A DNA stretch of 64,000 bases. Source: Fidelibacterota bacterium. Its GTDB lineage: Bacteria; Fidelibacterota; UBA8477; JABMPR01. The notes under the pieces are model-generated. The model saw only the letters and a program-made list of their open reading frames with translations. It made no database searches and was not told the DNA's origin. Location of the stretch: NCBI GenBank assembly GCA_018650795.1, contig JABIFG010000058.1, forward strand, positions 9,497 through 73,496, written 5' to 3'. The first letter of the stretch is position 1, and the number at the start of each line of letters is the position of its first letter. The translations under genes were made by a program, and so were the position numbers. Of this stretch, positions 651-57,905 are shown one piece after another.

Positions 651-2201
651 CTATTTGAATTCAATCTTGTAAGCAAAGGCGTGTTGCCCCATTTGATTTT
701 TGGGGAGCTGGACAGTCAGGTGGTCAGCCGTGTTTTCCCAGCTGAGATTCCCCTCATATCCTAACAAGGACACTTTGCTTATGGGTCTGAAGTGCTCAGA
801 ACTCTCACCCAATGCATTAATCATGAGTTGTCCAGAATCGTCCCATCCCAGAGCTATTACATAGAGCACACCGTCATTGGCAGTAAAGCGGATATCCTGA
901 GGCACATAGCTCACCTTGTTTTTACGCTCGCTGAAAGCACCACCGATTTCCTTTGTAGGACCTTCGCCATACTTTAGCCAAGGTCTCGTATCATAGATGG
1001 CTTCACCGTTGACCTTGAGCCACTCTCCCATGCCCAGAAGCGTTTGCTGAGCACCCTCAGGAATCGATCCATCTGCACTGGGGCCAACGTTTAATAGTAG
1101 ACAACCATTTTTACTCACAATATCAACCAGGACGTCGATGAGTTCATTTACTGACCGATAATCTGAATTTTCTACATGACTCCAGGAAACATTGTCAATT
1201 GAAGTATCTGTCAACCAGGGGAACGGAGCTAAACTATCCATACGTCCGCGTTCAAAATCTAGAATACCTGCTCCAGCCGGGAAATCGTCATGCTTGTACG
1301 CAACACCAACATCCTGGCCTCTTTGAGCAGACTCATTGTAATAATATGCCAGAAACCTTTTTTTATAAGCCTGAAAATCATCTCTGGATTCACGCCAAAA
1401 CTTTTTTCTCTCCAGCCCCGAATCAAACCACAAGAGATCTGGATGATATTTATCGATGACTTCGATAGTTTTCTCTTCCCAGGCTTTCATATAAGCCGGT
1501 GTGGGTGCATCCCCTACCTCATGGATTGGTGGAAACATTCCATAGGGACCCGCCAGATCTGGATTCTGGGTATCAAAGCGGTGATCTTCACGGAAAGACG
1601 GCTCAAAATACCACCATTTACGGGCATGATGAAGGGAAGCCATAAATTTCATATCCTGAGCCCTGATAGCTGTGGCAAGTTCTCCGACTATGTCTCGTTT
1701 GGGACCTTTATCCATAGCATCCCACTCAGTTAGATCGCTATCCCACATGGCGAAACCATCGTGGTGTTCGGCGACTGGACCGGCGAACTGAGCTCCAGCT
1801 TGTTTAAAAAGATCGGCCCATTCCTGAGCATCGAATTTTTCGGCTGTGAAGAGGGGCACAAAATCACTATAGCCAAATTTGGTTTGATCGCCCCAGGTTT
1901 CAGCATGATGGGTAAAATAATTACCTCTTCGATGGTCTTTTTCGATATACATCTTACGGGGATACCATTCATGACCCCATGCAGGAATCGAATAAACGCC
2001 CCAGTGGGTATAGATTCCAAATTTAGCATCACTGAACCATTGGGGATCCTCATGTTTTACCAGAGACTCCCAATTCTCCTCAAAAGGTCCCAGAACTGGC
2101 TCTTGTTCAATGATTTCAGGTTTTGGCTGGCAGTTGATGATGAATAGAATACAACCAATTAGTAACAGCATCATTCTATCTTTGAGTTTGAACATCGCCA
2201 T
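651..2201 (-). CDS. alpha-L-fucosidase, GH29
   Basis: Contains the GH29 hallmarks KFGIYTHWGVYS, HHDGFAMWDS and LLNVGP. The likely start is MAMFKLKDRMMLLLIGCILFIINC, a signal peptide or lipobox. The longest ORF (to 2294) would overlap the upstream gene by 89 nt, so the internal start was chosen. Confidence 0.88.
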   Translation of the reverse strand: MAMFKLKDRMMLLLIGCILFIINCQPKPEIIEQEPVLGPFEENWESLVKHEDPQWFSDAKFGIYTHWGVYSIPAWGHEWYPRKMYIEKDHRRGNYFTHHAETWGDQTKFGYSDFVPLFTAEKFDAQEWADLFKQAGAQFAGPVAEHHDGFAMWDSDLTEWDAMDKGPKRDIVGELATAIRAQDMKFMASLHHARKWWYFEPSFREDHRFDTQNPDLAGPYGMFPPIHEVGDAPTPAYMKAWEEKTIEVIDKYHPDLLWFDSGLERKKFWRESRDDFQAYKKRFLAYYYNESAQRGQDVGVAYKHDDFPAGAGILDFERGRMDSLAPFPWLTDTSIDNVSWSHVENSDYRSVNELIDVLVDIVSKNGCLLLNVGPSADGSIPEGAQQTLLGMGEWLKVNGEAIYDTRPWLKYGEGPTKEIGGAFSERKNKVSYVPQDIRFTANDGVLYVIALGWDDSGQLMINALGESSEHFRPISKVSLLGYEGNLSWENTADHLTVQLPKNQMGQHAFAYKIEFK

Positions 2202-2205
2202 AATC

Positions 2206-4443
2206 CTATTTGACCAGTTGGAGGTTTTCACCAGAGTGATCTTCCAATGTTTCAGCACTCCAGAGTTCAATATTATTCTTCCAGATCCTCTCAAAACTCG
2301 GCTGGCTAAGCAATCCGATCTTCATGATGTCAATGGATTCAATCCCCATTGCTAGTGCGGGAGAGCCTTCTTCAAGTCGGACATCACCCCTGGCCATATC
2401 TTTGAATAGTGGATCGGCATATACTCCATGAGCCTCGTGCCCCAAGGCCTGAATCTGCTCTAAGGACTTCTTTCCGGCTTCCTGCATATCAGAATAAAAT
2501 AAATTGTAATCAGGATTTGCCAGATCCAGTAATCCTTTGAGCTTCTTTTCAACATTCGTGTTGTAAAATCTAACAGGAGTACCAATACCGTAGATAATGT
2601 TTTTATTTACTTTAGCACCTACAACGGTCTCAGGTCTAATAGATATTCCACCTCCAATGACGATGTTGTTTAGGATATAATTTGTGTGCTTTAGTTTGAT
2701 GCCATTGCCAAAAACAATATTCTGTTCCACATAGGATTCTTCCTGGTCGTCATCAAAGCGAATTTCGTTTGAAGCTTTGGTGGTCTTGTAAATCAGATTC
2801 CGTTTGATAATATTGCCTTTGCCTGCACATGACAGATAGATAGCATTTCCATCACCCAATACTTCCATGACATTATGAAATTCATTATCCTGGACCACAT
2901 TGTTGCGAGCATGTGCAAATTTTAAGGCTTCCTCTGCAGTCTGAGGATCATCCGTTTCTTCCCAGCGAATGATCTGCATATTTTCTCGAATTCTCCTTGG
3001 AATTGCGTATCCAGTCCACTTCACAGAATCCATGATCCCAAAATAGCGTGGACGGACACCGCTCAAGACGATGGCATCATAGGGCAAATCATGGATATAA
3101 TTGTTCAGAACTTTATTCTCTCCGCTCTGCCAGATAAAGATTCCAGGACTATGTAGATAGAGTTGACCAATCCTGGACATCTCATTGTCGACAATGCTAT
3201 GGCCGTAATTTACATCCTTAACACCAGGTCCATATCCAGCGAGCAAGATGCCTGTGCCACCGAGATTATCAATCTTGTTGGAGCGAATCTCAATATTCTG
3301 GCCGTAAAGGTCGATGCGGATTCCCCCACTCCCTGCATTTCGAAAATCACAGGCAATAACCCTACAATCCTGTGCTGATCTGAATCTGAGGAGGGTATTG
3401 TCCTTGTCAAACATATCCCAATCATGCTGAATACCACGGTCTTCCTTCGTCCAGGTATCCCGATCAGTGCCTGTGAAAGTCAAGCCCTTGAATTGAATTC
3501 CTCTAACAGGGATATCACCTTTAACTTCGTAGACATTTTTTCCTTCCACGCGTACAAGCGTCGGTAATGTGGGAGCTTGAATATTATCTCCGGGTGTATC
3601 TCCGGTTGGCCACAGGTAAAGCTTACCTGCCTGTGAGTCCAACACCCATTCACCAGGTTGATCCAGAGCTTCCAGAACATTCTCTACCCAGCAGGTCTCT
3701 TTCCAGGGTTTGTTTTTGACCTGACAGAGACGATAGGTTCCAGGAAGTGTTGTTGTAGCCAATAAGTTTTCTTCGTCCACGCTTTCCAGGGTTAAATAAT
3801 TAACCAACCATTGATGGGTCGGTCGGATAAAAATCTCAACATCTGATAGATTTGGCCAATCTTTGATTACGCCTTCCGGATAGTGCAAAATTTGTAGATC
3901 TTCCCATCTGTTGGCCAGGGTTGGGTTGGGACAGGCTGTGGTTGGTTGAAAGCCCTTAGAGCGGGCTCTGGGTAGTAGTGTTTCACCGTCATAGAGGGTT
4001 TTAAAGTTCCATTTGTCAGGTCCTTGATTGTTCAAGTCGAGGACATAAACATTTCCGTGCGCGATGGCGGGTAAAGCTTCCGGTGGGGAAGCAAGTTTTT
4101 GCCATCCGCTGAGTACTTTGGTGGATGTGATGATGGGTTCTGCGCCTTCTGCTGCTTCCCAACTGATTGTCTGACCTTCACCTGCACCATCCTTCAATCC
4201 CAGAACCAGCGTTTCATCCAGACGATAGACACCTCCACTTAGAACTACAGAGATATCACCGGTGTACTCATTACCCAGTGCTTCGCGAACCAATGTTTGA
4301 GCTTTTGTAAGGGTTGCAACAGGAGCATCCATGGTGCCCATGTTGGCGTCAGCGCCAGTTGGTGAGACGTGGATGGACATAGATTTCTCATCACATCTAT
4401 TGAACAGGATGGCTAGTGCTAGAATTAAAACTTTAAATTTCAT
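2206..4443 (-). CDS. secreted right-handed parallel beta-helix protein (pectin-lyase fold), candidate glycoside hydrolase or lyase for sulfated fucan
   Basis: 745 aa with an N-terminal signal (MKFKVLILALAILFNRC). The start SIHVSPTGADANMGTMDAPVATLTKAQ is typical of DUF1565/beta-helix proteins. Repetitive G/N-rich rungs are present (NAGSGGIRIDLYGQNIEIRSNKIDNLGGTGILL). There is no T9SS CTD. Confidence 0.6.
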   Translation of the reverse strand: MKFKVLILALAILFNRCDEKSMSIHVSPTGADANMGTMDAPVATLTKAQTLVREALGNEYTGDISVVLSGGVYRLDETLVLGLKDGAGEGQTISWEAAEGAEPIITSTKVLSGWQKLASPPEALPAIAHGNVYVLDLNNQGPDKWNFKTLYDGETLLPRARSKGFQPTTACPNPTLANRWEDLQILHYPEGVIKDWPNLSDVEIFIRPTHQWLVNYLTLESVDEENLLATTTLPGTYRLCQVKNKPWKETCWVENVLEALDQPGEWVLDSQAGKLYLWPTGDTPGDNIQAPTLPTLVRVEGKNVYEVKGDIPVRGIQFKGLTFTGTDRDTWTKEDRGIQHDWDMFDKDNTLLRFRSAQDCRVIACDFRNAGSGGIRIDLYGQNIEIRSNKIDNLGGTGILLAGYGPGVKDVNYGHSIVDNEMSRIGQLYLHSPGIFIWQSGENKVLNNYIHDLPYDAIVLSGVRPRYFGIMDSVKWTGYAIPRRIRENMQIIRWEETDDPQTAEEALKFAHARNNVVQDNEFHNVMEVLGDGNAIYLSCAGKGNIIKRNLIYKTTKASNEIRFDDDQEESYVEQNIVFGNGIKLKHTNYILNNIVIGGGISIRPETVVGAKVNKNIIYGIGTPVRFYNTNVEKKLKGLLDLANPDYNLFYSDMQEAGKKSLEQIQALGHEAHGVYADPLFKDMARGDVRLEEGSPALAMGIESIDIMKIGLLSQPSFERIWKNNIELWSAETLEDHSGENLQLVK

Positions 4444-4473: not shown

Positions 4474-6114
4474 CTAATCCCAGGCTTGTTCTCTGACTCG
4501 CATCAGGTCTGGATATTTCTCATCGGTGTCACCATATTGCTCTTTCAACTTCAGCAACTCCAACTTGAGTTTTTTAATCACTGCTGAGTATTCAGGATCT
4601 TCGTATACATTTTTCAATTCGCCTGGATCATTTTCCAGGTCATAAAGTTCCCAACCTGGAGGAGATGGACGATAATGATCCAATGCTTCAGTTGTTTTAT
4701 CCATGGTTTCGGAGGTTTTTTCCCCAACCAGACCCAAACCCAAACCATAAAAGAAGATGAGCTTATATTTATAAGTCCTGATACCGTAATGAGCGGGGAC
4801 ATTATGATGGGCCATGTGCATCCAGTATCGATAGTACATTGATATCCGCCAGGTCTCTGGGATATCACCACTTAACTGAGGAAGAAATGATGCTCCTTGC
4901 ATGCTGGAGGTTTTTTCTCCACCGGCTATATCCAGAAACAAGGGGGCAAAATCGATATTGAGGACCAGGCTGTCGTCAACACTTCCTGGTTCAGTAATAC
5001 CGGGGTATCTGGCGATGAAGGGCATTCTCAAGGAATCCTCATACATCCAGCGTTTATCATAGTAGTCGTGCTCTCCCAGAAACTGGCCTTGATCTGAGGT
5101 ATAGATAACCACTGTATTTTCAGCCAGACCACTTTGATCCAGATAATCCAACACTCGACCGACATTTTCGTCAATGGCTGCTACACAGCGCAGATAGTCC
5201 TTTATGTATTTCTGGTATCCAGACCGCTTTATTTGATCCGCGTCCATTCCTATGGCATCCAGAGCACCAGTTGGCCATTCTTTGCCAGCGCTCCCCTTCT
5301 CCATTCGTTTACCCAGCTTATAAAGATTGGAGCCGTAGCCCTGGGTAGATTCAGAACGATGAGACTTATCTTCCCAAAAACTGGGGGGTTCAGGAACCTC
5401 AATGCCATCAAGTAGATGTTCATAGCGGGGTGGATATTCCCAGAGACCGTGAGGTGCTTTATGTTGACACAGGAGAAAAAATGGTTTCTCATCATCTCGT
5501 GCCTCAAGCCATTTCAGCGTTTCTTCGGTAACCACGTCAGTGGCATAGCCTGGATAAACTTTCTCATCACCCTCTTGATTTTTCATGACGGGATCAAAAT
5601 AGGTACCTTGCCCCAGTACGCCGGTCAAGACATTCCAGTGATCAAATCCCTGGGGATCACCATGGAGATGGTATTTCCCAATAATTGCGGTTTCATAACC
5701 AGATTTCTGCAACTCATGGGCCACATGCTTGGTACCCGTCGGTAATGGATCATCAAGAGTTCTCACACCATTGATATGACCATACTGTCCTGTAAGGATA
5801 CTGGCACGACTGGGAGTACAGATGGAATTGGTGCAGAAGCAATTATCAAAACGCATCCCCTCCTTGGCGATCCGATCAATATTTGGTGTGGGCAGTGTTT
5901 CTGCCAGCCAGCCCTTGTATGCGCTAATGGCGTTGGCAGCATGATCATCTGACATGATGTAAAGAATATTTGGTTTCTTCTGGGTGGACTTTTTACTGGA
6001 TAGGCAGGATAGCAATGAGGATGAGCCTGCTAGAGCTAGACCTCCAACTGCAATCTGTTGCATGAATTTTCTACGGGATAGGGGTGTTGATTTAGTATTC
6101 ATCATAGCTCTCAT
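4474..6114 (-). CDS. S1-family sulfatase (formylglycine-dependent), Tat-secreted
   Basis: Tat motif SRRKFMQQIAVGG; sulfatase signature MSDDH...CTPSRASILTGQYGH (C-x-P-x-R). Confidence 0.9.
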   Translation of the reverse strand: MRAMMNTKSTPLSRRKFMQQIAVGGLALAGSSSLLSCLSSKKSTQKKPNILYIMSDDHAANAISAYKGWLAETLPTPNIDRIAKEGMRFDNCFCTNSICTPSRASILTGQYGHINGVRTLDDPLPTGTKHVAHELQKSGYETAIIGKYHLHGDPQGFDHWNVLTGVLGQGTYFDPVMKNQEGDEKVYPGYATDVVTEETLKWLEARDDEKPFFLLCQHKAPHGLWEYPPRYEHLLDGIEVPEPPSFWEDKSHRSESTQGYGSNLYKLGKRMEKGSAGKEWPTGALDAIGMDADQIKRSGYQKYIKDYLRCVAAIDENVGRVLDYLDQSGLAENTVVIYTSDQGQFLGEHDYYDKRWMYEDSLRMPFIARYPGITEPGSVDDSLVLNIDFAPLFLDIAGGEKTSSMQGASFLPQLSGDIPETWRISMYYRYWMHMAHHNVPAHYGIRTYKYKLIFFYGLGLGLVGEKTSETMDKTTEALDHYRPSPPGWELYDLENDPGELKNVYEDPEYSAVIKKLKLELLKLKEQYGDTDEKYPDLMRVREQAWD

Positions 6115-6315: not shown

Positions 6316-8490
6316 TTATTCAGCAGTGAAGCTCCAGACTGGTCCTTTGATGACCTTTCCGCCAACGATGTTGTCTATTCTCCAGTAGTATGTTTTGCCT
6401 GTTTGAAGATTCCCGGGTGCAAAGATATTGTTCTTCTGTTTCCCTTTATACTCAATTGATTTGGGTGAAGCCTTGCTAACTGCCTTATTCGAATTCCCAA
6501 AGTAGATCAGGTTTGTTTCAGATTTGTAGGCTGACAGCCATATGAGATCAGTATTTTGTTTCGCCGCAGTGTTTTTATTCCTAGGAATAGGAATGCTACT
6601 GGTGGCTTCCTTTCTGCCTGGAATCCAATACTCCTTTGCTCCAAATTCATATGCACCAATATCTGGAGCGTTCCCCAGATATTTTTCCGAGCGATCTGAA
6701 ATAACCTTACCCGCGTCCACAATTTCAGCGCCTACTATCGGTCTGAAGTCCCAGTTATCAGGATCTCTTAGCTGAGTTCGGTAATCACCCTCGTTTTCAT
6801 AGGCGTTCCAGTTGTGATCTGCAATTCCGGGTACCGGTGTGAATTTTTTGCGATGGCCGGAGAGTTTACCAGCAAGGTTGTTGCGAGTTATCGTACCCTT
6901 ATTCGCCCCTCCATTTACATCAGAATCATCCAGGATGATGAGTCCATTCAAGCCCATTGCAAATGTGGTATTGTTGAAGCAGAAATGTCGCTCGCCTTTG
7001 ATCATGATGCCGCGCTCAGATTCCCACATGACGTTATTATTCATCTGTCCCCCATTCCCCCAACGTACTGGCGGAATTGGCGAATCGAACCGAGCACCGC
7101 TTTTAACCGTATTGCGGAACCAATTATTACGAATGATTGATCCTGTCTGTCCGGTGATCTTCACCTGGGTGATAGATCCGTCACTCTGTAGAAAACCTGT
7201 ATTCCACACGTGATTCAATTCTACTAACGGAATGCCACCGGCACTGATGGTTGAAGAGGCAGCGCAGGAGTGAACTGTATTTCTCCGAAAAATGTTATGC
7301 TTACCATTTAACATGATTGAAACCTGCAGGCCGGGAATACTGGATACCGAATAATCGATGTCATGAAAGAGAGAGTTTTCGACTCGATTGTGGGTACCCT
7401 CCATATAAAGTGCATGCCCATCTGTATAAGCAAATGAGCAATTCAGAATGGTACTATTTGATGCTTTTTTGGGACTCTTTTGTAGAAATACTGTGGATTC
7501 ATCATGCTGCTCATCACCAAGTAATCTCTGGGTATAGCTTGGATAAAGAAAATTACAATCTTCAAGTTGAATGTAGGTACAATTTTCAAATTTCAAGGTT
7601 GTCCCATAAAAGTCAATACCTCTAATGGTGATAAAATGACTATTAGCGAATGCTGCGGCATAGGTCTGGACTTTACCACGTAGATCTGCTTTAGGTTTTC
7701 CACCATCAGGCTGCCACAGGTAAATCGTTTTGGATTTCTTATCAAAAAACCATTCATTCTGAGAATCCAGGAAATCCAGTAATCCTTCGAGGTAGTAAAA
7801 ATGATGTTTGGGGCGGTAACCTTTGACTCTTTTAAAGGAAAATGCCTCTTCACCCTTTTTATGGGATTGAACCTGGCGTGTGGTTGAAGTGAATGAACCC
7901 ACATTAAGGATGGCCATAGCTCCTTTTATGGAAAAATCGAGGCTTTTTAGCTGATGGGGGGTTTCAGGATCATTATATAGTTTTTCTCTGGTGTCCTGCT
8001 TATGGAGCCCCCTGGCCCAGGTTTTCTTCTGATCCCAGACTGTATTATCTGAATATTGGGCATTGGGCCATCGGGCTGGAACAACCATTTCATTGTTCCA
8101 GAAGAGCTGCCACACATCCTGCTTCATTTTTAATTTATAAATGTTTCCGCTATGTTTTTTCCAACGTCCCTTGACATCAATCGTACCATCAAAAACAACT
8201 TTCTCATCGGGGTAAGCTAAAACTACCAGGGGTTTATCTTTTGAACCCTCAATGTTTTTCAGTTGATTCTCAAAGTGGTAGTTGCCCTCTCTTACAAAAC
8301 AGGTATCGCCGGGCTGCATCCCCGATAATGCTTTTTTGAGGCTTGCGAAGGGTGCCTTCATATCGCCCATATTACGATCACTACCATCCACTGCCAGAAA
8401 GACATTTTCGGCTAGGACTGGTTGTGCTAGAGCCAATATTAACAGGACTATACGGATATTGGTTATAATCATCGTATCATTTTTTTTCAT
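6316..8490 (-). CDS. DUF1565-like right-handed beta-helix protein with a C-terminal FN3-like domain (paralog family A)
   Basis: Signal peptide. NVFLAVDGSDRNMGDMKAPFASLKKAL matches the YYVSPxGSDxNxGTxxxPF type of start. Family motif DVWQLFWNNEMVVPARWPN. The C-terminal about 75 aa (YFGNS...TYYWRIDNIVGG...WSF) recur in the paralogs at 52942-55404 and 55386-57905. Confidence 0.65.
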   Translation of the reverse strand: MKKNDTMIITNIRIVLLILALAQPVLAENVFLAVDGSDRNMGDMKAPFASLKKALSGMQPGDTCFVREGNYHFENQLKNIEGSKDKPLVVLAYPDEKVVFDGTIDVKGRWKKHSGNIYKLKMKQDVWQLFWNNEMVVPARWPNAQYSDNTVWDQKKTWARGLHKQDTREKLYNDPETPHQLKSLDFSIKGAMAILNVGSFTSTTRQVQSHKKGEEAFSFKRVKGYRPKHHFYYLEGLLDFLDSQNEWFFDKKSKTIYLWQPDGGKPKADLRGKVQTYAAAFANSHFITIRGIDFYGTTLKFENCTYIQLEDCNFLYPSYTQRLLGDEQHDESTVFLQKSPKKASNSTILNCSFAYTDGHALYMEGTHNRVENSLFHDIDYSVSSIPGLQVSIMLNGKHNIFRRNTVHSCAASSTISAGGIPLVELNHVWNTGFLQSDGSITQVKITGQTGSIIRNNWFRNTVKSGARFDSPIPPVRWGNGGQMNNNVMWESERGIMIKGERHFCFNNTTFAMGLNGLIILDDSDVNGGANKGTITRNNLAGKLSGHRKKFTPVPGIADHNWNAYENEGDYRTQLRDPDNWDFRPIVGAEIVDAGKVISDRSEKYLGNAPDIGAYEFGAKEYWIPGRKEATSSIPIPRNKNTAAKQNTDLIWLSAYKSETNLIYFGNSNKAVSKASPKSIEYKGKQKNNIFAPGNLQTGKTYYWRIDNIVGGKVIKGPVWSFTAE

Positions 8491-10900
8491 TTTTCTTCCA
8501 CTGGTTGTTGAACGAATAAGATATGGACATTATAAATCGTTTTGAATCATACTCAGAAATGTTTCTTGCGAAGAAATCTGTTCGATAATCAATTTCCTTT
8601 TCATCTCTGAGTGTGTCAAACACATCGGATACTTTCATACTTAAATTCACTTTGCGATCCCACAGATAAGTCTTGAGAGAGACATCAGTGAATTGTCTGG
8701 TGGCATTACTCCCCTGCCAGGTAATACGGGGTGATTCATACTTGTGAATGATTTGAAAGTAGTGTTGCTTTTTCAGGTTCAGGTCAAGTTTGATTTTTGC
8801 CGAAGTAGTAACCTTCTGGCGTTTCTTAAGTGATTCATCCCCTTCACTCAACAGCATACTATTAAAGTGTACAATACTGCCTGATATTTTCATGAAAGTA
8901 GCAGTCTTGTAAACCCAGTTTATATCTCCTCCTATTGCTTCACCAGAGGAAAGATTATCTGGATAAATGTGGGTAATACTATCTGATACAATTTCAATCT
9001 GATTGCCAATTATATCATCGATTTCCCTGTAAAATAGTGAGCTGCTGATAGTGTGTTTTTCGTTTCTCCATATGTACTGTAATTCATAGTTATCAATTTG
9101 CTCAGGTTTCAAATAGGGGTTACCTGTTTTCAAAAAATAGGTTGAGGTATTTATGACCTGCGGATTCAACCTGTTGTAGGCTGGTGGTGATATTCTACGG
9201 GAATAACTGAATTGCAGCGTTTGCAGCGGTGTAATCATCCTGATGAATTGAAGTGAGGGCAGGACCTGATCATATCTATTATTGACACTCCCTGTATCAT
9301 TATGGACCGACTCATTGGTGATTGATTCCAGACGTGTTCCCAGGTTCAATTGGTAGTGTTCAGTTGAATAGCGATAAGAGATATAGGATCCATGCATGAT
9401 TTCGTTGTATGAAAAGGGTCCTCCCCTAAAACTATCCTGACTCCAGCCCGATTCATCCACCAACAACGAAAAATAATCATTCCGGAGTAGATTGTTGTCG
9501 GAGCGAAATTGATATCCCAGATCGATTTCATGTTGACCCAGCGCAGGTAAAGACCAATCTATTTTAATTGTTGTTTGATCGCGATCATCATCGCTATGGA
9601 GAGAGTCGCTTTTCAGATTGCCTGAGACAAACCCCTGAGGATCAAAATTCTGTTTTTGATCATTTCCATCACGCGCTGAGGCTGTCAGTGATTGAGTGAA
9701 GAGTACATTCAAATTGGATCTGGATGTTTTTGCATCAAAGTTATAGATCAGGGATATTTCATCTCGTTCCCTTAGATCTGATGATTCCTTTTCCTTCTCA
9801 GTAAATCGCTGTAGCATCTGCGTACTATCCAATCGATCTGAGTGCGTTGATCCAGTTAGATCCTTCAAGCGAATATTTATTAAATAAGTAAGCCTGAAGG
9901 CGTGTCTTTTTGAGGCTGACCATCTTGTGCCCATTCTGTATTGTCTTGTCAGACTCTGTTTATCATTTTCCCCTGTAAGATTTAAAAACCATGGGTTGTC
10001 GGAATAGGTTTCTCTCCAATACCGGGTGTCGCTTGATCGTGTAAACAGTCTATCTGAGAACTCACCAAAGGCATTAAACCCTTTCACATTGGTAGATGCA
10101 TTTGCAGATATCTGATAGTCACCGGAGTCATGATATCCAAGACGAAGTCGGCCGCTACTGCCCTTCTTTTTGTGCTTTTTGAGCTTGATATCGATAACTC
10201 CACCTGATGAAGATTCATATTTAGCAGAAGGATTAGGAATGACTTCGATGGATTGGATTGAGCCAGCTGGAATTTGAGAGAGCATATCTTCTAAATTGGT
10301 TTTGACACCATCAATATAAATGGCTGCTTTCTGACCCCGAATGGCTGCAGATTCGTCCTCATCAAAGGTAACGCTGGGGGCATTTTCTAACAGGTCTACT
10401 GCTGTCTCCCCTTCCACGGATGCAGAATCACCAACTGTGATTACAGTTTTGCCAGGCTCAAATCGAACATCGGGAGCTTGAGCGGCTGCAATTATCTCTG
10501 GACTTTCCAGGTTTGCCTGAAGCAGGTAGAGGTCCCCAAGGTCAACCAGGGAGTTTGGAATGGATATATCTTTGATTTGATGTGTTTCATAGCCGATATA
10601 TTGAATTTCAAGATCGTATGTCTCAGGTAGTAACAAATCAATCGTAAACACACCCATCTGATCTGATGTTGTACCAGTTACCAGTCCAGAATCTGAACTT
10701 TGAAATATCAAAATATTTGCACCCAGGATAGGATTGTGAGTTTCAGCATCAAGGAGTTTTCCCTTCAATATGGCATTGGACCTTGTTGATGGATTTTGTG
10801 ATAGAACCAATATAGGTATGAGAACAGTGATAAGAATACGGGTCGTGGTTCTCAAAGACAAACCGAGCTGTGAAGATTTTTGTTTAGATTGTGATACCAC
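8477..10900 (-). CDS. outer-membrane beta-barrel, TonB-dependent-receptor-like protein with an N-terminal carboxypeptidase-regulatory-like domain
   Basis: CarbopepD_reg-like region ILKGKLLDAETHNPILGANILIFQ...GVFTIDL. Plug-like region AVDLLENAPSVTFDEDESAAIRGQKAAIYIDGV...GSIQSIEVIPNPSAKYESSSGGVIDIKLK. A long barrel ends ...ISYSF, then a basic extension NNQWKKNEKK. Confidence 0.7.
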   Translation of the reverse strand: MVSQSKQKSSQLGLSLRTTTRILITVLIPILVLSQNPSTRSNAILKGKLLDAETHNPILGANILIFQSSDSGLVTGTTSDQMGVFTIDLLLPETYDLEIQYIGYETHQIKDISIPNSLVDLGDLYLLQANLESPEIIAAAQAPDVRFEPGKTVITVGDSASVEGETAVDLLENAPSVTFDEDESAAIRGQKAAIYIDGVKTNLEDMLSQIPAGSIQSIEVIPNPSAKYESSSGGVIDIKLKKHKKKGSSGRLRLGYHDSGDYQISANASTNVKGFNAFGEFSDRLFTRSSDTRYWRETYSDNPWFLNLTGENDKQSLTRQYRMGTRWSASKRHAFRLTYLINIRLKDLTGSTHSDRLDSTQMLQRFTEKEKESSDLRERDEISLIYNFDAKTSRSNLNVLFTQSLTASARDGNDQKQNFDPQGFVSGNLKSDSLHSDDDRDQTTIKIDWSLPALGQHEIDLGYQFRSDNNLLRNDYFSLLVDESGWSQDSFRGGPFSYNEIMHGSYISYRYSTEHYQLNLGTRLESITNESVHNDTGSVNNRYDQVLPSLQFIRMITPLQTLQFSYSRRISPPAYNRLNPQVINTSTYFLKTGNPYLKPEQIDNYELQYIWRNEKHTISSSLFYREIDDIIGNQIEIVSDSITHIYPDNLSSGEAIGGDINWVYKTATFMKISGSIVHFNSMLLSEGDESLKKRQKVTTSAKIKLDLNLKKQHYFQIIHKYESPRITWQGSNATRQFTDVSLKTYLWDRKVNLSMKVSDVFDTLRDEKEIDYRTDFFARNISEYDSKRFIMSISYSFNNQWKKNEKK

Positions 10901-18534: not shown

Positions 18535-18650
18535 GGTAAGGAGACTGAGCTTGTCGAAGTCGGTTGGTTATCACCCTATGGTAATGGACATTTCGTCCTT
18601 CGACTCCGCTCAGTATGACAGCTCAATGTCCGAGGAATCTTATAGCTTCA
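18535..18650. repeat. Copy of the dispersed intergenic element (CTGAGCTTGTCGAAG ... CGACTCCGCTCAGTATGAC)
   Basis: Shares the CTGAGCTYGTCGAAGT core and a CTCAG(G/T)ATGAC end with the copies at 6156, 38886 and 57978. Confidence 0.4.
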
Positions 18651-20157: not shown

Positions 20158-20170
20158 ACTTATATCCAGC

Positions 20171-21163: not shown

Positions 21164-21165
21164 AG

Positions 21166-23445: not shown

Positions 23446-23454
23446 AGTAGTCCC

Positions 23455-33255: not shown

Positions 33256-35400
33256 CTATTTGACCAATAAACACTTTTTGACCAATGTTCTCGACCGCGA
33301 TCGAAGCTGAATCATATACACTCCAGAACTAATATTCTGTGGATTCCAGCGAATTGAGTGTTCTCCTTTGGTGTAAGATTGATTAATTAACTCTGCAACA
33401 TGTTGTCCGCTTAGTGAGTAAACATTCAATCTAATTCTATCCACCTCACCTAGTCTGAATTTGATCAGCGTGGTTCCATTAAAAGGATTTGGGAAATTCT
33501 GCTCCAGTGAAAAATCGTGGGGTGAATTTATATTGGTACCCCTCGAATCAATAGCGACTGGGAAAGTCTGCGGCTCCCAGGAAATACCAGCCGTCCAATG
33601 CTCTCCACCATATTCATAAGCCCCCAGGTCAGGAGCCTCCCCTAGATAGCCATCGGTAATTCCTACGATCTCAAGACCAGCATCGATAAAAGGAGAATCC
33701 TCAATGGGTCGAAAATCATAATTCTCAGGATCAACCAAATAGTCTTCAACAGAATCCTCTGTGATCCAGCCATTCCAGTTATGATCATAGATTCCAGGAA
33801 CAGGATAGGCGTCATAATTACTTGAACGATGTCCCGAAATTTTATCTGCAGCATTATTACGCGTAATGGTGCCCTCATTGCCACCCAGATCAATGAGAAC
33901 AATGATTCCAGTATTTGAGGTGTTAAAGCAAGTATTGTTCAGAACACGATGATCATGTCCTTTGAGCATATGTCCTGACTTTATATCCCAGGATACATTA
34001 TGATGCATGGTGCCACTGTGGCCGTCGCCATCTCCATCAAAGCGAATCCCATACTTTGGACTATCGTGAACCCAATTGTAAGCTGTTTCTGAATCGATCT
34101 GCTGATTTTCCATATAATGAATGATGGCACCATCACTCTGCAGATAACCTGTATCATACATGTCATTGTACTCAACCAGGGCCATATTACCGGGATTAAG
34201 TCCGGATGAGGCACCCGTTTTGTGAACAGTGTTTTGGCGAAAAATATTATCATTGCCGCCCATCTTTAAAGTAGTCATGACCGAGGACAAGTCGGTAACG
34301 GTGTAGTCGATATGGTAAAAGTAGCAATCCTGGATGGTGTTATTCCCACCATCGGTTTCAATTGCACTTCCATCCGTGTATTGGAAGGAACAGCGTTTCA
34401 CTATGCAATCACTGCTACTGTTAATGCGGGACATTTCAGGTTCTACCCCAGTCACACCCAACATTCGCTTATAGCAGCTGGGATACATAAAATTGCAACT
34501 ATCCACTTCAGAATAGTTGGAATTATGAATATTGAAGGTCGTCCCAAAAAAATTGAGACCTTTAATTTTAAAGACATTGGAATTGCTCACATCAAAAAAA
34601 TAGGACTGGGTTTTCCCACGAATATTCAAGCCCGTCGGATTCGCATTTTCTGGAGCCCAAAAATAGAGTTCCATAGATTCATGATCATAGAACCACTCCC
34701 CTGGCTGATCAAGAAATTCCAGCTTATTCTCAAAAAAGTAATAATGATGTTTTGTACGATAGGCAGATTCAGGTATAGGGTCGAAGCTGAAGGAATTACT
34801 CCCCTGAGTATGACCGGTAACTTCTTTGGTGTAAGAACGAAACGATCCGGTATTAAGAATAGCGAGTGCTCCTTCCACGCTGAATATAAGATCAGCCAAC
34901 ACTATATCACCATGCGGGTCATCCACTTCGGCCCCATTGGTACTCGCATTCTCATCTCCATGTGCCCAATTCTCCTCCTGGTTCCAGATCGTTCCATCAT
35001 CAAAACGGGCATTGGGCCACCGGGCCATGATCATTTCATTCTGATCGACAAAGAGTTGCCAGATATCTTCATTCAGGGTTGTTTTGTAAATCGATCCCTG
35101 ATGAATGGTCCAGGTAGAGTTTATTGGGGCGGTCCCATCAAGAATTACAATCTCATCTTGATAAGGACGAAATGTGAGTTGTGGTTTACCGGACACCACA
35201 ACCTCTTCATGGTAGGTACCTCCACGAATGATACATACATCCCCAAATTGCATTGAATTGGCAGCGAATTGTATCGAAGCATAAGGTGCCTCAAGCGTAC
35301 CAGAATTTGTGTTGGAGCCTGATGGTGCAACAAAGTATTCTGTAGCATTCAAACATGAGAGTCCCAACAGACAGGGTATTATGTAATCAAGAATTCTCAT
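33256..35400 (-). CDS. DUF1565-like right-handed beta-helix protein with a type-A T9SS CTD (paralog family A)
   Basis: TEYFVAPSGSNTNSGTLEAPYASIQFAANSM; DIWQLFVDQNEMIMARWPN; CTD LEQNFPNPFNGTTLIKF...GVYMIQL...KKCLLVK. Confidence 0.7.
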   Translation of the reverse strand: MRILDYIIPCLLGLSCLNATEYFVAPSGSNTNSGTLEAPYASIQFAANSMQFGDVCIIRGGTYHEEVVVSGKPQLTFRPYQDEIVILDGTAPINSTWTIHQGSIYKTTLNEDIWQLFVDQNEMIMARWPNARFDDGTIWNQEENWAHGDENASTNGAEVDDPHGDIVLADLIFSVEGALAILNTGSFRSYTKEVTGHTQGSNSFSFDPIPESAYRTKHHYYFFENKLEFLDQPGEWFYDHESMELYFWAPENANPTGLNIRGKTQSYFFDVSNSNVFKIKGLNFFGTTFNIHNSNYSEVDSCNFMYPSCYKRMLGVTGVEPEMSRINSSSDCIVKRCSFQYTDGSAIETDGGNNTIQDCYFYHIDYTVTDLSSVMTTLKMGGNDNIFRQNTVHKTGASSGLNPGNMALVEYNDMYDTGYLQSDGAIIHYMENQQIDSETAYNWVHDSPKYGIRFDGDGDGHSGTMHHNVSWDIKSGHMLKGHDHRVLNNTCFNTSNTGIIVLIDLGGNEGTITRNNAADKISGHRSSNYDAYPVPGIYDHNWNGWITEDSVEDYLVDPENYDFRPIEDSPFIDAGLEIVGITDGYLGEAPDLGAYEYGGEHWTAGISWEPQTFPVAIDSRGTNINSPHDFSLEQNFPNPFNGTTLIKFRLGEVDRIRLNVYSLSGQHVAELINQSYTKGEHSIRWNPQNISSGVYMIQLRSRSRTLVKKCLLVK

Positions 35401-38820: not shown

Positions 38821-38885
38821 TATATTTTAATCATTCCAAGGAATACCTAAACAGTTATTTAGTGACACCAGAAAGTGAGAATTGT

Positions 38886-52941: not shown

Positions 52942-55404
52942 CTATTTGATTAAGACGAGTTTCTTTGTCTGAGAAAATCCTTTGCCACTCAGGCGGTACA
53001 AGTACACCCCTGATGCCAGCAGATCTGCCTGAAAATCAACACTGTGATGTCCCTTCACCATAGAACGGTCAACCAGGGTTAACTCTAGTCCACCCAATAG
53101 GTTAAACAACTGCATTTTCACCTGTGATGCGTATGGTAAGGTGAATTTTATTGTCGTCTGCGCATTAAATGGATTTGGATAATTATCACTCAAATGAAAT
53201 TTGAATGGAGATTCCCTGTCATTATTCAGCCCTGATGCAGCGGAACCTACCAGAAAATTCCACTCATCACCCGTTACCCAGCCGGCAGGTGTATTGCAAT
53301 TAACTCTCCAATAATAAAGTTGACCCGGAATTAACGAACCCGGATCATAAATATTATTGACCTGCGTGCCCATTTCCGTGAGCTGACCAGATTCAGTCCC
53401 GAAGTAAACCTGAAAACTTGTGGCTTCCAGCCCCTTCAGCCACATCAGATCGGCGTCTGTCATAACATTGACTGCATCATGAGGTGGAACAGGTGTTGAT
53501 GCCTTTGATACGAGTCGTCCAGGAATCCAGTAGTTATCATCACCAAATTCATAAGCCCCAATATCCGGTGCCTCCCCGACATATCCTTCAGTGATTCCTG
53601 GAATGATCACACCGGCATCGATGAGTTCGGATCCCGCTTTGGGTCGAAAATCAAAATTATAGGGATCACGTAGCTCTTCCCGTAAATCAGTCCCCGTTTC
53701 ATAACCGTTCCAATTATGATCGTGGAAGCCAGGTATAGCGGTAAAACCATTATTACTTCCCGATAACTTGGTCGCCGCATTATTCATGGTGTAGGTGCTG
53801 TCATTTCCACCTTTATCGATTGAGATCTGGATATCATTCCGAGGTACACAGCCAAAGGCAGTATTATTATAGATAAAATGAGCGGTTCCCTTAACTCTGA
53901 GACCGCGATTCCCATTCATGGAAATACAATGATGAATCGTGCCATCATAAGCGCCTGGATCCCCATCAAACCGGATCACATTGTGGCTATTAGTATCATA
54001 ACACCAATTATAACCGATAATCATACCGGGTTGTTGACCTGGGGCAATCTGGATGTTGGATCCATCTATGCTATAATGAATGTTGTAAATATTGTTTAAC
54101 TCAATCAGATCCGCTTTACCGCCTTTGAGACCATTCCCCTTCCCGATGGTATGAATGGTGTTTCGTCTAAATATGTCGTCTTCCGATTTGCGACCATAAA
54201 CAGCCCCCTGTCGTCCCTGAGCCCACAGGATATGATGAAACAGACTATTCTCGATACGCCATCTACGGGTTCCGGCGCTATGAAAGGTAATGGCACAATT
54301 CTCTGAATATTCAAACACGCAATCATAGAATGTATCATCCTGACCTCCATCCAAATCAATATTGAGTGGCTGCTCGCGCACACCCAGCATGCGTTTGGAG
54401 TATGATGGATAACTAAAATTACAATGGTTAAATGTTCGATGGTCTCCCTGGAGAATGAGGAAATTTCCTGCATAGAAGGTTAAATTCTCAAAAAGAATAT
54501 TTGACGAATTATGAAGTTCCATAATCCTGTCTATGGTCCTTCCGCGTATGTCATGCAAAGAGGGATTTGCATTATCTTCGCACCACAAATACAATTCCAT
54601 AGTGGATTGATCAAAAAACCATTCTCCCGGACTGTCCAGCAAATCCAGCTTCCCCTCAAACCAGTATCGAGATTCAGAGCCGTCAGAATCTCGACTGACA
54701 TCCAGATATTCAGCCGTACACTCAAAGCTGCTAGAACCAGGTATGTGATTGGTAATTTCTTCCACAATAATGTGCTCTGAAGTGGTCAGTTTACCCACTG
54801 CCAGACCACCTGTTAAATCAACATTTAGACTTGCCAGGCTATGCACACTCTCATTATTCACGATATTGCCACCAACACCCTGCACAAAGATTGATTCATC
54901 CGTACAGTGAGCCCAGGAATTAATATCCCAAAAACTTCCTGGTTCAGGGAAATTTGGGTTGGGATGACCCCCACTGGAATAGTCGGGGTTGGTTGGATTG
55001 GCTAGATTTGGCCAACGTGCCATCTGCATCATGCGATCATTGACAAATAACTGCCAGATGGTATCAGTAACAGTTGTTTTGTAGATACTACCCTGATATT
55101 GAACCCAGTCAGATGTAATGAGCTTGGTCCCATCAATGACGCCCTCTTCACCTGGATAGCTTTTAAAGCTAAGGTTGGATTTATTCTCCATATTGATGAA
55201 TCCATAATGCCTTCCGTCACGTAGTTGGCAGATATCCCCGCTGGACATTTCATCGACAGCCCGCTGAATTGTCAGGAATGGAGAATTAATGGAACCATCA
55301 GATTCATCATCACCATACTCAGAGACAAAATACTCTGTAGCGTTCAGACATGACAGCAGCCATAAAAGAGCGACTACTCCTCGAATTATTTTATAAGCAT
55401 ACAC
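52942..55404 (-). CDS. DUF1565-like right-handed beta-helix protein with an FN3-like domain and a type-A T9SS CTD (paralog family A)
   Basis: TEYFVSEYGDDESDGSINSPFLTIQRAVDEM; TIWQLFVNDRMMQMARWPN; FN3-like MTDADLMWLKGLEATSFQVYFG...LYYWRVNCNTPAGWVTGDEWNF; CTD LSDNYPNPFNAQTTIKF...GVYLYRL...KKLVLIK. Confidence 0.7.
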   Translation of the reverse strand: MYAYKIIRGVVALLWLLSCLNATEYFVSEYGDDESDGSINSPFLTIQRAVDEMSSGDICQLRDGRHYGFINMENKSNLSFKSYPGEEGVIDGTKLITSDWVQYQGSIYKTTVTDTIWQLFVNDRMMQMARWPNLANPTNPDYSSGGHPNPNFPEPGSFWDINSWAHCTDESIFVQGVGGNIVNNESVHSLASLNVDLTGGLAVGKLTTSEHIIVEEITNHIPGSSSFECTAEYLDVSRDSDGSESRYWFEGKLDLLDSPGEWFFDQSTMELYLWCEDNANPSLHDIRGRTIDRIMELHNSSNILFENLTFYAGNFLILQGDHRTFNHCNFSYPSYSKRMLGVREQPLNIDLDGGQDDTFYDCVFEYSENCAITFHSAGTRRWRIENSLFHHILWAQGRQGAVYGRKSEDDIFRRNTIHTIGKGNGLKGGKADLIELNNIYNIHYSIDGSNIQIAPGQQPGMIIGYNWCYDTNSHNVIRFDGDPGAYDGTIHHCISMNGNRGLRVKGTAHFIYNNTAFGCVPRNDIQISIDKGGNDSTYTMNNAATKLSGSNNGFTAIPGFHDHNWNGYETGTDLREELRDPYNFDFRPKAGSELIDAGVIIPGITEGYVGEAPDIGAYEFGDDNYWIPGRLVSKASTPVPPHDAVNVMTDADLMWLKGLEATSFQVYFGTESGQLTEMGTQVNNIYDPGSLIPGQLYYWRVNCNTPAGWVTGDEWNFLVGSAASGLNNDRESPFKFHLSDNYPNPFNAQTTIKFTLPYASQVKMQLFNLLGGLELTLVDRSMVKGHHSVDFQADLLASGVYLYRLSGKGFSQTKKLVLIK

Positions 55405-57905
55405 TTTTGGACCGCCCTTGAATCACCGCTTTCCAACTGAATAAAGTAGACACCTGATGCCAGATCTTCTGCGTACAAATCAAATTTATGTTCCCCCCGA
55501 CCAAGCTCCTCACTTATCAGGGTACGAATATATCGTCCTTGAATATTGAACAGGGTCAAGCTGGTCATATCCATCTCAGGGATAGAAAATGAAATCCTGG
55601 TTTTGGGATTAAAGGGATTTGGATAATTGTTCTGCAATTTGAATCTGAATGGTAGAATCCCGCTGTCACCAGTACCAGTTGAAGGTTCACCGACTAGGAA
55701 ACTCCATGTCTCTCCAGTCACAACACCGGCTGGCGTCACACAATCCACTCGCCAGAAATATTCGCTCTCCTCCAACAAACCGGGCTCATAGATATTATTA
55801 GCCTGTGTACTCACTTGAACCAGATTGCTGGGACTTAGCCCAAAATAGACCCTATAACTGGTTGCTTCCCTCCCCTTCAACCACATCAGATCTGCATCCG
55901 TCATGACCATGTTAGATTCATGTGGTGGGATGGGTGTAGAGGCGTGGGAATATTGATAACCTGGAATCCAGTAATTGACATCCCCGTATTCATAGGCTCC
56001 AATGTCTGGTGCATCACCTACAAACCCGGCCGTAATGCTATCATACATAACACCTGCATCGATCAGATCACTGTCGAAGCGCGGTCTGAAATCAAAATTG
56101 TGAACATCTCGTACCTGCAAACTGGCATTTTCTTCTGTTACATATCCATTCCAGTTATGGCTCTCATTTCCAGTGAGGGGGACATATATCTGTCGATCGG
56201 AGGAAATCGCTTGTGCCAAATTGTTATGTACATTTGAATGAGAATTGTTATCAGTCCCAGCGGGAGTCAGCACTTTTATACCCGGTTCTCCATCAGATTG
56301 AATCTCCAGTGATGTATTATTGATTACATGATGATAATCACCTTTGATCTGCATAGAAGCAGGCACCTTCCATGAGACAAAATGATGGTCAGTGCCATTA
56401 ACACCGCTGCTCCCATCCCATCTACAACCGGTTTTGAAAGCCTGGAAATGCCAGTTGTAGCTGCGAATTCTTCCATCGCTGCCACCCCCGGGTCCATCCC
56501 CACCGGCACATTGCATGGCGCAACCATCATACTGAAAGTATCCAAATTTGGAAAAGCGACACATCGTTACATCCATGGAGGTATGTTTGACCATGACCTT
56601 CGAGCCATTCGTGTGGAAAGTACAATTCGTCATTAAGCTATTTTTATTTGAATTTGCCATGAGAGCCATTTGAGCCATCCCGGTAAAGCTGAAATGATGA
56701 AACAGACAATTATCAATCAGAATTCCATAACCCGATTTCATCCAGACCATACCATCCGAATATTCGAAAACGCAGTTGCGTAGCGTGGTAAATGTACCTG
56801 ACGAGGTACTAGTCGATCCATCCAGAACAGTAGTACCTTCATGGATTGCGGAAGCTGCAGCTTGCTCAGGTTCTCCCGCATAACTGTGTTCACCAAGCAT
56901 ACGTCGATACCAGGTCGGATAGGAAAAATTGCAGTCTTCAACGGTCACATGATGTCCATTGGGAGAATTGACGGTACAACCGAAGAAATTGATACCCCTG
57001 ATGGTGATAAAATCCATTTCATTCACACTGATGGCATATGATATGGTTTTGCCCCTGATATTTCGACCCTCAGGAGAAGCACCGTCTTCACACCAGACCC
57101 TGACAACGCCTGTCGTGTTGTCATAATACCACTCACCAGGGATATCCAGAGCACTGTTGGCTTCAATCATGAACTGACCCTGCCGCTGGTCGTGGGGATT
57201 CATAACAGGTTCATGGATCAAATCGTTACTTCCGGCTGAATGACTGAGAATATTGCGGGAAAAGGTTGACTCAGAATGAAAGTTCAAAATGATGGAACCA
57301 CCTTCAAAACTGACGCCTTCTGCTGCAAGATTGTGAAAGTTTGAGTTATTTGTAAGATTCCCACCTGCATTCCAGGTATTCACCATATGTCCCCAGGTAC
57401 CTTCCCAATCCCACCATGAGCCAGCTATGGGGGTATATTCATCTTCTTGAAACTGAATTGGATCGCAGGGATGTCCGACTAAGACATTGGGCCAACGAGC
57501 CGGTATCATCATGCGTCCATCAACCCAGAGCTGCCAGACATCCTGATCGAGGGTGGTCTGATAGATATTCGTTCCTGGCTCCTGAGTCCAGGTTACTCCA
57601 CCCAGATCTGAGAGCGCTCTGGAACCATCGAGGGTCACCTCTTCATCAGCGTAGTTTGAAATGGTTATGGGACCTGTTTTTGAACTAGTCACCACCTCTT
57701 CATGATAGACACCCTCCCGGATATAGATGTGATCCCCGGGTCCAGCCACATCAATAAAGGCATGCTCAAGCGTGGCAAAAGGGGCTGATATTGTTCCTGG
57801 ATTCGTATCGTCTCCATCAGTCGCCACATAATATTCTGTAGCCAGGAGCATGGGAGCCATGACCAAAAGGGATATGATGACGTATTTCACTTTATTAAGA
57901 CACAT
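55386..57905 (-). CDS. DUF1565-like right-handed beta-helix protein with an FN3-like domain and a type-A T9SS CTD (paralog family A)
   Basis: TEYYVATDGDDTNPGTISAPFATLEHAF; DVWQLWVDGRMMIPARWPN; FN3-like MTDADLMWLKGREATSYRVYFG...EYFWRVDCVTPAGVVTGETWSF; CTD LQNNYPNPFNPKTRISF...GVYFIQL...QKCMLIK. Its 3' end overlaps the start of the downstream paralog by 19 nt. Confidence 0.7.
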   Translation of the reverse strand: MCLNKVKYVIISLLVMAPMLLATEYYVATDGDDTNPGTISAPFATLEHAFIDVAGPGDHIYIREGVYHEEVVTSSKTGPITISNYADEEVTLDGSRALSDLGGVTWTQEPGTNIYQTTLDQDVWQLWVDGRMMIPARWPNVLVGHPCDPIQFQEDEYTPIAGSWWDWEGTWGHMVNTWNAGGNLTNNSNFHNLAAEGVSFEGGSIILNFHSESTFSRNILSHSAGSNDLIHEPVMNPHDQRQGQFMIEANSALDIPGEWYYDNTTGVVRVWCEDGASPEGRNIRGKTISYAISVNEMDFITIRGINFFGCTVNSPNGHHVTVEDCNFSYPTWYRRMLGEHSYAGEPEQAAASAIHEGTTVLDGSTSTSSGTFTTLRNCVFEYSDGMVWMKSGYGILIDNCLFHHFSFTGMAQMALMANSNKNSLMTNCTFHTNGSKVMVKHTSMDVTMCRFSKFGYFQYDGCAMQCAGGDGPGGGSDGRIRSYNWHFQAFKTGCRWDGSSGVNGTDHHFVSWKVPASMQIKGDYHHVINNTSLEIQSDGEPGIKVLTPAGTDNNSHSNVHNNLAQAISSDRQIYVPLTGNESHNWNGYVTEENASLQVRDVHNFDFRPRFDSDLIDAGVMYDSITAGFVGDAPDIGAYEYGDVNYWIPGYQYSHASTPIPPHESNMVMTDADLMWLKGREATSYRVYFGLSPSNLVQVSTQANNIYEPGLLEESEYFWRVDCVTPAGVVTGETWSFLVGEPSTGTGDSGILPFRFKLQNNYPNPFNPKTRISFSIPEMDMTSLTLFNIQGRYIRTLISEELGRGEHKFDLYAEDLASGVYFIQLESGDSRAVQKCMLIK

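Follow-up and report, generated by a model that had tools for sequence, protein, structure and literature searches.

The window analyzed here is a 64,000-nucleotide stretch from a Fidelibacterota bacterium (contig JABIFG010000058.1, positions 9,497 to 73,496 of the forward strand; GenBank assembly GCA_018650795.1). It encodes four related beta-helix proteins, which we label W1 (open reading frame, or ORF, 6316-8490), W2 (33256-35400), W3 (52942-55404) and W4 (55386-57905). With moderate confidence, we propose that W1-W4 are uncharacterized, GH141-like glycoside hydrolases that use a pair of aspartates, that three of them are exported by the type IX secretion system (T9SS), and that they act on sulfated fucans. 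A sequence-only reading of the window had placed a four-member family at these positions, and we find the four ORFs exactly there, all on the minus strand, which carries all large ORFs of the window. The four are real paralogs, with pairwise identities of 30-40% over about 620-850 aligned residues (BLASTP E 1e-97 to 1e-163), far beyond chance.

Invariant residues and a putative catalytic pair

Searched against the ORFs of the window, a profile hidden Markov model (HMM) of the family recovered exactly W1-W4, plus one weak cross-match, ORF 2206-4443. W4 is the most divergent of the four, and each copy has nearer relatives elsewhere; for instance, W2 is 63% identical to the database protein P0007 and W4 is 53% identical to P0183. 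Judged by sequence, W1-W4 are ancient paralogs of one large clade, and since their mutual identity is 30-40% and closer orthologs exist elsewhere, the comparison points to differing linkage or sulfation specificities among them.

All four copies carry a hallmark block (DVWQLFWNNEMVVPARWPN, DIWQLFVDQNEMIMARWPN, TIWQLFVNDRMMQMARWPN and DVWQLWVDGRMMIPARWPN). The invariance of WQL and ARWPN noted from the sequence is borne out; the flanking consensus given with it was too strict, as W3 has T for D and W1 has W for V. The superfamily motif to which this block belongs reads …WQLF…ARWPN in the family, …LYDG…LPRARS in a GH141-type clade that contains ORF 2206-4443 and PDB entry 9rx2, and …RQLWVNGKKAVRARD in the GH141 protein BT_1002.

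To assess residue conservation we used 235 full-length members from the 90%- and 50%-identity cluster representatives, with W1 numbering. D437, D469, R467 and R140 are 100% conserved, H210, N456, W457 and N537 are conserved in at least 96% of members, and K498 and W127 are conserved in 94% and 92%, respectively. The helix core has no invariant acidic residues apart from D437 and D469. Where the sequence-only reading had allowed that conserved catalytic residues might be absent, we thus find an aspartate pair present in every one of these diverse proteins. W1-W4 retain every invariant residue, so none of the four paralogs looks like a decayed copy.

The conserved aspartates and R467 of the family align with invariant residues of the GH141-type clade. 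D437-G438 aligns with the clade's invariant D531-G532, and R467-x-D469 aligns with R562-x-D564 (hmmsearch against 9rx2; hhalign), with the two aspartates separated by 32 residues in the family, 33 in the GH141-type clade and 41 in BT_1002. The aspartate of the clade's DG motif in turn aligns with ‘MYDVAG’ of BT_1002, where it falls on SEQRES residue D528, which we assume to be the essential D523 given a five-residue tag offset. D523 and D564 are the two BT_1002 aspartates shown to be essential, according to a passage of PMC12786026 that cites the work. For a fucoidan-associated branch of GH141, that paper gives signatures that include xDG… and xRxDx (PMC12786026).

Fold and relation to GH141

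An AlphaFold2 model of W1 built with 35 homologs is of high confidence (pLDDT 91.5, pTM 0.90), and a Foldseek search with this model ranked BT_1002 first (E 8e-19) and GH120 second. The model has the right-handed beta-helix, the N-terminal cap and the inserted beta-sandwich of GH141 enzymes, and the GH141_M domain (PF21231) is matched in all four copies, above the cut-off of 27 bits in W2 (28.7 bits) and below it in the other three (13-21 bits). GH141_M also matches many homologs in Pfam, where the family otherwise finds weak Beta_helix and Pel9A-like cap matches. NCBIfam holds no family-level model, and its matches are N-terminal PelN/LIC10774 fragments and the C-terminal sorting domain. Against PDB chains, the family profile gives weak matches only, led by 9rx2, annotated as a ‘parallel beta-helix repeat protein’ (E 5e-21), the GH120 enzyme XylC (3vst; E 2e-19, 72 bits, N-terminal 95 residues only) and BT_1002 (5mqp; E 4e-13, 51.5 bits, N-terminal 260 residues, profile positions 17-259). 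A literature search for 9rx2, which is an unpublished entry, found no paper that mentions it.

ORF 2206-4443 is a fifth beta-helix gene of the window, absent from the sequence-only reading, and lies between GH29 and sulfatase genes. The profile of its clade matches BT_1002 with E 2.4e-41, from which we assign the ORF to the GH141 type, and it provides the bridge between the family and GH141. Aligned by hhalign, the family (35 sequences) and the GH141-type clade match with 99.9% probability (E 1e-32) over 545 columns at 19% identity; the match begins at the N-terminal cap and ends at the C-terminal DFRP…DAG cap. The view that the family is unrelated to known ones therefore gives way to remote homology with GH141. 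ORF 2206-4443 is identical (100%) to a protein that NCBI places in a metagenome-assembled genome (MAG) of Candidatus Marinimicrobia (SAR406). Among the genomes of the species collection, the nearest for this ORF is a Neomarinimicrobiota MAG from the Black Sea, at 85% identity.

Homology does not mean membership in the same clade. The family HMM scores its own members at 504-990 bits and 120 GH141-type proteins at 46-141 bits, and the GH141-type HMM scores family members at 16-83 bits. Because scores within the family are at least 504 bits and those across clades at most 141 bits, the family is a separate clade by profile comparison, probably a remote sister or deep branch of CAZy GH141, and its distance from the GH141-type clade is at least as large as that between this clade and BT_1002. 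GH141 proteins (BT_1002; the xylanase Xyn141E; the endo-1,4-alpha-L-fucanases Wf141_1/2/4; the 9rx2 clade) have in common with the family the N-terminal cap, the GH141_M insert, the beta-helix, the LD.(P)GEW and (W/F)..L…RAR motifs, a putatively equivalent DG…RxD acidic pair and the genomic company of GH29, sulfatases and fucoidan-type loci. They differ from it in that identity is only about 19-20%, GH141_M exceeds its cut-off in one of four family copies, and the family has its own invariant set (WQL, ARWPN, NW and HNWN).

Similarity to GH120 is of a different kind. The beta-xylosidase XylC is very similar over its N-terminal 95 residues and also has a beta-helix with an inserted beta-sandwich, but sequence similarity ends after the N-terminal cap. 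In a single weak alignment of the core, the DG of the family falls on ‘YGH’ of XylC, so the Asp382/Glu405 pair of that enzyme is not recovered. The label ‘DUF1565-like’, given from the sequence alone, likewise fits only the N-terminal 40-70 residues, and there below the Pfam cut-off of 20.3 bits: W1 and W4 reach 19.4 and 19.0 bits against positions 1-41 and 2-65, respectively, of the 257-position PF07602 model, and the Pfam scan found no match to it in W2 or W3.

Domain architecture and predicted export

Each of the four proteins begins with a signal peptide and the N-terminal cap also found in GH141, GH120 and PL9, has a beta-helix core and an inserted beta-sandwich of GH141 type, and continues from a conserved C-terminal cap into an FN3-like domain and/or a T9SS sorting domain. 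All four window copies have one or both of these last domains, rather than three copies as first counted. W2, W3 and W4 have a T9SS C-terminal domain (CTD) at 32.5-38.4 bits with PF18962 (cut-off 27) and 33.9-39.1 bits with TIGR04183 (cut-off 23), and Pfam and TIGRFAM scans find none in W1. The FN3-like domain with its YYWR(V/I)D motif is present in W1, W3 and W4, and a Pfam scan of these regions (the C-terminal domain of W1 and the C-terminal parts of W3 and W4) matched no model. This domain is widespread; one database protein of 2,953 aa (P0160) has 28 copies. At the other end of the proteins, the (T)EYFV…G.D…G….PF lead-in described earlier holds for W2-W4 and is degenerate in W1 (ENVFLAVDGSD…). 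The calculated isoelectric point (pI) of the catalytic module is 8.8 in W1 against 4.5-4.8 in the T9SS-tagged W2-W4, a contrast that suggests different compartments or different partners.

Family size and distribution

A word-indexed search returned 353 homologs. At source they are labeled ‘hypothetical protein’ or ‘T9SS type A sorting domain-containing protein’, except for one Pontiella member with a carbohydrate-binding-module label. No source name among the 353 gives a function, and we found no characterized member among them. An exhaustive search of 50%-identity representatives gave 3,494 clusters at E<=1e-30, and the best 150, which are those we inspected, all score at least 599 bits. As an estimate of family size, the 3,494 clusters are an upper limit, with GH141-type relatives probably among them, because inspection covered the best 150, the profile had FN3-like columns, and many GH141-type proteins, at 46-141 bits with the family HMM, would pass E<=1e-30.

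Taking one genome per species, we find the family in Neomarinimicrobiota, Phycisphaerae, Pirellulales, Verrucomicrobiota, Calditrichaceae and both Pontiella species (Kiritimatiellota), in Bacteroidales, Marinoscillum, Flavobacteriales, Anaerolineales and Dehalococcoidia, and in marine group II/III archaea, single-cell genomes included. Literature searches on Marinimicrobia with fucoidan and on Pontiella with GH141 found no statement about this clade.

Gene context in the window and in other genomes

The fucosidases and sulfatases reported beside the family are indeed there. The window encodes four GH29 fucosidases, five S1 sulfatases, three TonB-dependent receptors and several T9SS cargo proteins with carbohydrate-binding-module, PKD or BNR domains (Table 1). 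The family genes are packed in an operon-like way with TonB-dependent receptors, sulfatases and GH29; there is a 14 nt overlap between the start of W1 and the end of the receptor gene upstream of it, and W3 and W4 stand in tandem with a 19 nt overlap.

Table 1. Positions of the four paralogs, their key segments and neighboring genes in the 64,000-nucleotide window (CTD, T9SS C-terminal domain)
Feature	Position	Strand	Description
W1	6316..8490	-	724 aa, ATG start; signal peptide, beta-helix catalytic module (~28-625), FN3-like YYWRID domain (~630-724)
W1 hallmark block (residues 127-143)	8062..8112	-	WQLFWNNEMVVPARWPN; family version of the GH141-type clade motif
W1 putative catalytic segment	7084..7185	-	SDGSITQV…NNW…ARFD; D437 (nt 7180-7182), N456/W457, R467, D469 (nt 7084-7086)
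W1 FN3-like C-terminal domain	6319..6603	-	YYWRID motif; local Foldseek matches to FN3 domains (ranks 43, 49)
W2	33256..35400	-	714 aa; catalytic module and CTD, FN3-like domain absent; putative catalytic D423, D455
W3	52942..55404	-	820 aa, GTG start; catalytic module, FN3-like domain, CTD; putative catalytic D447, D480
W4	55386..57905	-	839 aa; catalytic module, FN3-like domain, CTD; keeps D460, R495, D497
Fifth beta-helix gene, canonical GH141-type	2206..4443	-	745 aa; phmmer E 4e-143 to PDB 9rx2
GH29 alpha-L-fucosidase	651..2294	-	further copies 13645-15252, 15262-16863, 61285-62802; Pfam Alpha_L_fucos E 1e-79 to 1e-102
S1 sulfatase directly downstream of W1	4474..6114	-	further sulfatases 16898-18442, 31714-33222, 59895-61283, 62799-63941
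TonB-dependent receptor directly upstream of W1	8477..10900	-	product-uptake context
PorV-like gene	20171-21163
Outer-membrane module, first copy	18640-26379	-	TonB-dependent receptor (974 aa), Pfam-less protein (759), PorV-like (330), FadL-like barrel (505)
Outer-membrane module, second copy	44802-52746	-	same order; 972, 787, 361 and 514 aa
BNR/sortilin-like beta-propeller genes	37336-44763	-	four consecutive genes

The association with fucosidases and sulfatases is real beyond this window and recurs across six phyla. We surveyed genes within 8 kb of a family gene at 82 loci and clustered the 109 family ORFs found there; GH29 occurs at 14 of the 82 loci and sulfatases at 15. GH29-positive loci come from Kiritimatiellota (both fucoidan-growing Pontiella species), Planctomycetota, Verrucomicrobiota, Bacteroidota, Calditrichota and Marinimicrobia. 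For instance, Pontiella desulfatans, an isolate that grows on fucoidan (PMC7356697), has a GH29 gene flanked by three family genes, with more GH29 and sulfatase genes nearby, and a related metagenomic locus repeats this arrangement. In a second example, two or three T9SS-tagged family genes lie in tandem within polysaccharide utilization loci (PULs) of Bacteroidota, together with SusC/D, four to five sulfatases, GH29s and a regulator of the hybrid two-component type. Among the clustered ORFs, the W1, W3 and W4 subclades lie almost always in GH29/sulfatase contexts.

Two fusions were seen at surveyed loci. One, in a Bacteroidota MAG (L086, 13436-16336; CAZURA010000001.1), is a 966-aa S1 sulfatase-GH29 fusion directly downstream of three tandem family genes. 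The other, in a single-cell genome of a marine group III euryarchaeote (L060, 7824-11543), joins a family member to cupredoxin-like and cyclophilin domains in a protein of 1,239 aa. Its neighbors are housekeeping genes and a gene for a 1,268-aa FG-GAP repeat protein, and neither fucosidases nor sulfatases lie close to it. BNR-repeat proteins at first seemed to co-occur with the family, but we rejected this as an artifact: the T9SS CTD of the query had matched the CTD of the family proteins themselves.

Proposed mechanism and alternatives

We propose that the glycosidic bond would be hydrolyzed by an aspartate pair on neighboring coils, D437 and D469 in W1, the putative counterparts of the DG and RxD aspartates of GH141. 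The mechanism is probably retaining, by the precedent of transglycosylation in GH141, which suggests a retaining mechanism there (PMC12786026). R140, R467, H210 and K498 may bind the substrate, possibly through its sulfate esters, and W127, W141 and W457 may stack on sugar rings. The gene context suggests as substrate a sulfated polysaccharide rich in fucose, for example the fucoidan of brown algae or the fucose-containing sulfated polysaccharide (FCSP) of diatoms. W2-W4, exported by the T9SS, would work at the cell surface, most likely as endo-acting enzymes on the polymer; the adjacent TonB-dependent receptors would take up the resulting fragments, and the GH29 fucosidases, the sulfatases and possibly W1, with its basic pI and no CTD, would finish them in the periplasm. 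The endo-fucanases of GH107, GH168, GH174 and GH187 have the same proposed role, extracellular depolymerization upstream of GH29 and sulfatases; their folds and sequences are unrelated, and none of these families appears among the PDB sequence or fold matches of the family. The argument made from the sequence, that known endo-acting fucoidan enzymes are not beta-helices and these proteins could be a new activity family, has been overtaken by two beta-helix cases: the GH141 endo-1,4-alpha-L-fucanases of Wenyingzhuangia fucanilytica (PMC12786026, Dec 2025) and the lyase FdlA (PMC9410043, 2022).

W1-W4 could instead be exo-acting glycosidases, for example alpha-L-fucosidases like BT_1002, that remove terminal or branch residues and leave the backbone intact. 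BT_1002, the founding GH141 member and the closest solved structure, is an exo-alpha-L-fucosidase (PMC10154630), GH141 in fucoidan loci has long been assumed to be exo-acting (PMC11685898), and W1, lacking a T9SS CTD, may be periplasmic. We nevertheless regard this alternative as unlikely, if the best of those we considered: three of the four copies have T9SS sorting domains, which puts them outside the cell, where polymer is encountered, the locus already has four GH29 exo-fucosidases, and the GH141 enzymes of a fucoidan locus that were tested proved to be endo-acting (PMC12786026).

Several observations weigh against the proposal that W1-W4 are aspartate-pair hydrolases of sulfated fucans. 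The catalytic modules of W2-W4 are acidic overall (pI 4.5-4.8), and the second aspartate maps onto D564 of BT_1002 indirectly, as the segment-profile HMMER alignment stopped at residue 550. As to the substrate, it is only gene context that points to fucan, and most loci have no GH29 or sulfatase within 8 kb (68 of 82 lack GH29). The W2 subclade (37 ORFs; SAR406 and marine group II/III archaea) and a Marinoscillum/Flavobacteriales clade (23 ORFs) mostly stand alone among housekeeping genes. Given that most loci lack these partners and that whole subclades stand alone, the family is probably polyspecific, as GH141 is. Fucose has no O-6. For the sulfatase immediately downstream of W1, the nearest match is an exo-L-galactose-6-sulfatase (PDB 7lha, E 1e-149) rather than a known fucoidan sulfatase, and since this match acts at a position that fucose lacks, this implies, as far as homology can tell, that the target glycan is not a pure fucan and is a heteropolysaccharide with a 6-sulfated hexose; it hints that the glycan carries 6-sulfated L-galactose or another hexose.

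These observations on the substrate would fit GH141-like hydrolases of a non-fucan substrate, either a branch sugar or a different marine heteropolysaccharide (for example, a sulfated galactan, xylan, rhamnan or glycoprotein glycan), with the neighboring genes reflecting a complex, mixed substrate. The archaeal fusion to cupredoxin and cyclophilin domains is consistent with such a role, as is the polyspecificity of GH141, which includes fucosidase, xylanase and endo-fucanase activities (PMC12786026), and dbCAN-annotated ‘GH120 xylosidases’ have been reported in fucoidan PULs (bioRxiv 10.1101/2025.08.13.670036). GH29, however, is a recurrent partner in polysaccharide loci of six phyla, often in several copies and directly adjacent, and the contexts of the W1, W3 and W4 subclades speak for fucose-rich targets, so that we hold a non-fucan substrate for all four to be rather improbable.

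Polysaccharide lyases acting by beta-elimination on uronate-containing fucoidan (for example, fucoglucuronomannan), in the manner of FdlA, PL6 or PL9, are far less probable still. The N-terminal lead-in does match Pel9A/PL9, PL6 and PelN models, the family has invariant Arg and Lys residues, and FdlA, the sulfated fucoglucuronomannan lyase of Flavobacterium sp. SA-0082, is a right-handed beta-helix that acts endo-wise on fucoidan (PMC9410043). Yet the lyase matches span only about 50-100 residues of the N-terminal cap, with no similarity to PL6, PL9, PL31 or FdlA across the catalytic helix, and the invariant acidic pair falls on catalytic motifs from a family of hydrolases. FdlA itself has no detectable sequence similarity or top-ranked structural similarity to W1-W4, uses proposed Tyr and Lys residues rather than an Asp pair, and lacks the GH141-type insert; in the window we saw no uronate-processing genes of GH88, GH105 or Kdu type. 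The lyase option of the sequence-only reading is therefore disfavored. Lastly, we give almost no credence to non-catalytic, T9SS-exported surface beta-helix proteins (adhesins or glycan-binding proteins): the CTD and FN3-like domains are typical of surface proteins, but W1 has no CTD, the genes are embedded among catabolic enzymes, and the Asp-Gly…Arg-x-Asp constellation homologous to the GH141 catalytic motifs is absolute across the 235 members.

Other features of the window

The GH29 ORF at 651-2294, read from a TTG start as 547 aa, overlaps the 3' end of ORF 2206-4443 by 89 nt. On public contigs the protein is 514 or 535 aa, and given this later start the true start of the ORF probably lies downstream.

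A four-gene outer-membrane module occurs twice (Table 1), with identities between its paired genes of 38%, 40%, 39% and 26% in the order listed. We saw no SusD-like gene in either copy, so this duplicated module could be the SAR406 counterpart of the SusC/D uptake unit, as its gene content suggests. Two unannotated genes beside the Pontiella family members (698 and 360 aa) were compared with the unannotated 787/361-aa pair of the window, and no similarity was found. PKD domains and T9SS sorting domains occur in two of the four consecutive BNR/sortilin-like beta-propeller proteins, and one of the four matches dockerin and, weakly, cohesin.

Significance

The fold and chemistry proposed here are unsurprising, since beta-helix fucoidan enzymes are already known in the GH141 endo-fucanases and FdlA. 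What stands out is a large, ocean-wide, uncharacterized clade tied to a recalcitrant carbon pool. Fucoidans and the fucose-rich sulfated polysaccharides of diatoms are among the most recalcitrant marine glycans and are relevant to carbon sequestration. To our knowledge, surveys of their degraders count only GH29, GH95, GH141, GH107, GH168 and a few sulfatase subfamilies. The clade occurs in pelagic lineages that are abundant and uncultured (SAR406, marine group II/III archaea), and if it is fucan-active, current censuses undercount these degraders.

More speculatively, and on balance doubtfully, the clade may be a new glycoside hydrolase family, in a clan with GH141 and GH120, that is endo-acting on fucose-containing sulfated polysaccharides and provides a major uncounted pelagic route. 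Because the clade occurs in SAR406, marine group II/III archaea, SAR202, Marinoscillum, Verrucomicrobiota, Planctomycetota and Kiritimatiellota, this would be a major route for pelagic attack on recalcitrant fucoidan and diatom FCSP, with a marker absent from current ‘fucoidanase’ gene censuses. The four diverged paralogs in one locus are candidate enzymes of differing linkage or sulfation specificity, which may be of use for producing defined fucoidan oligosaccharides.

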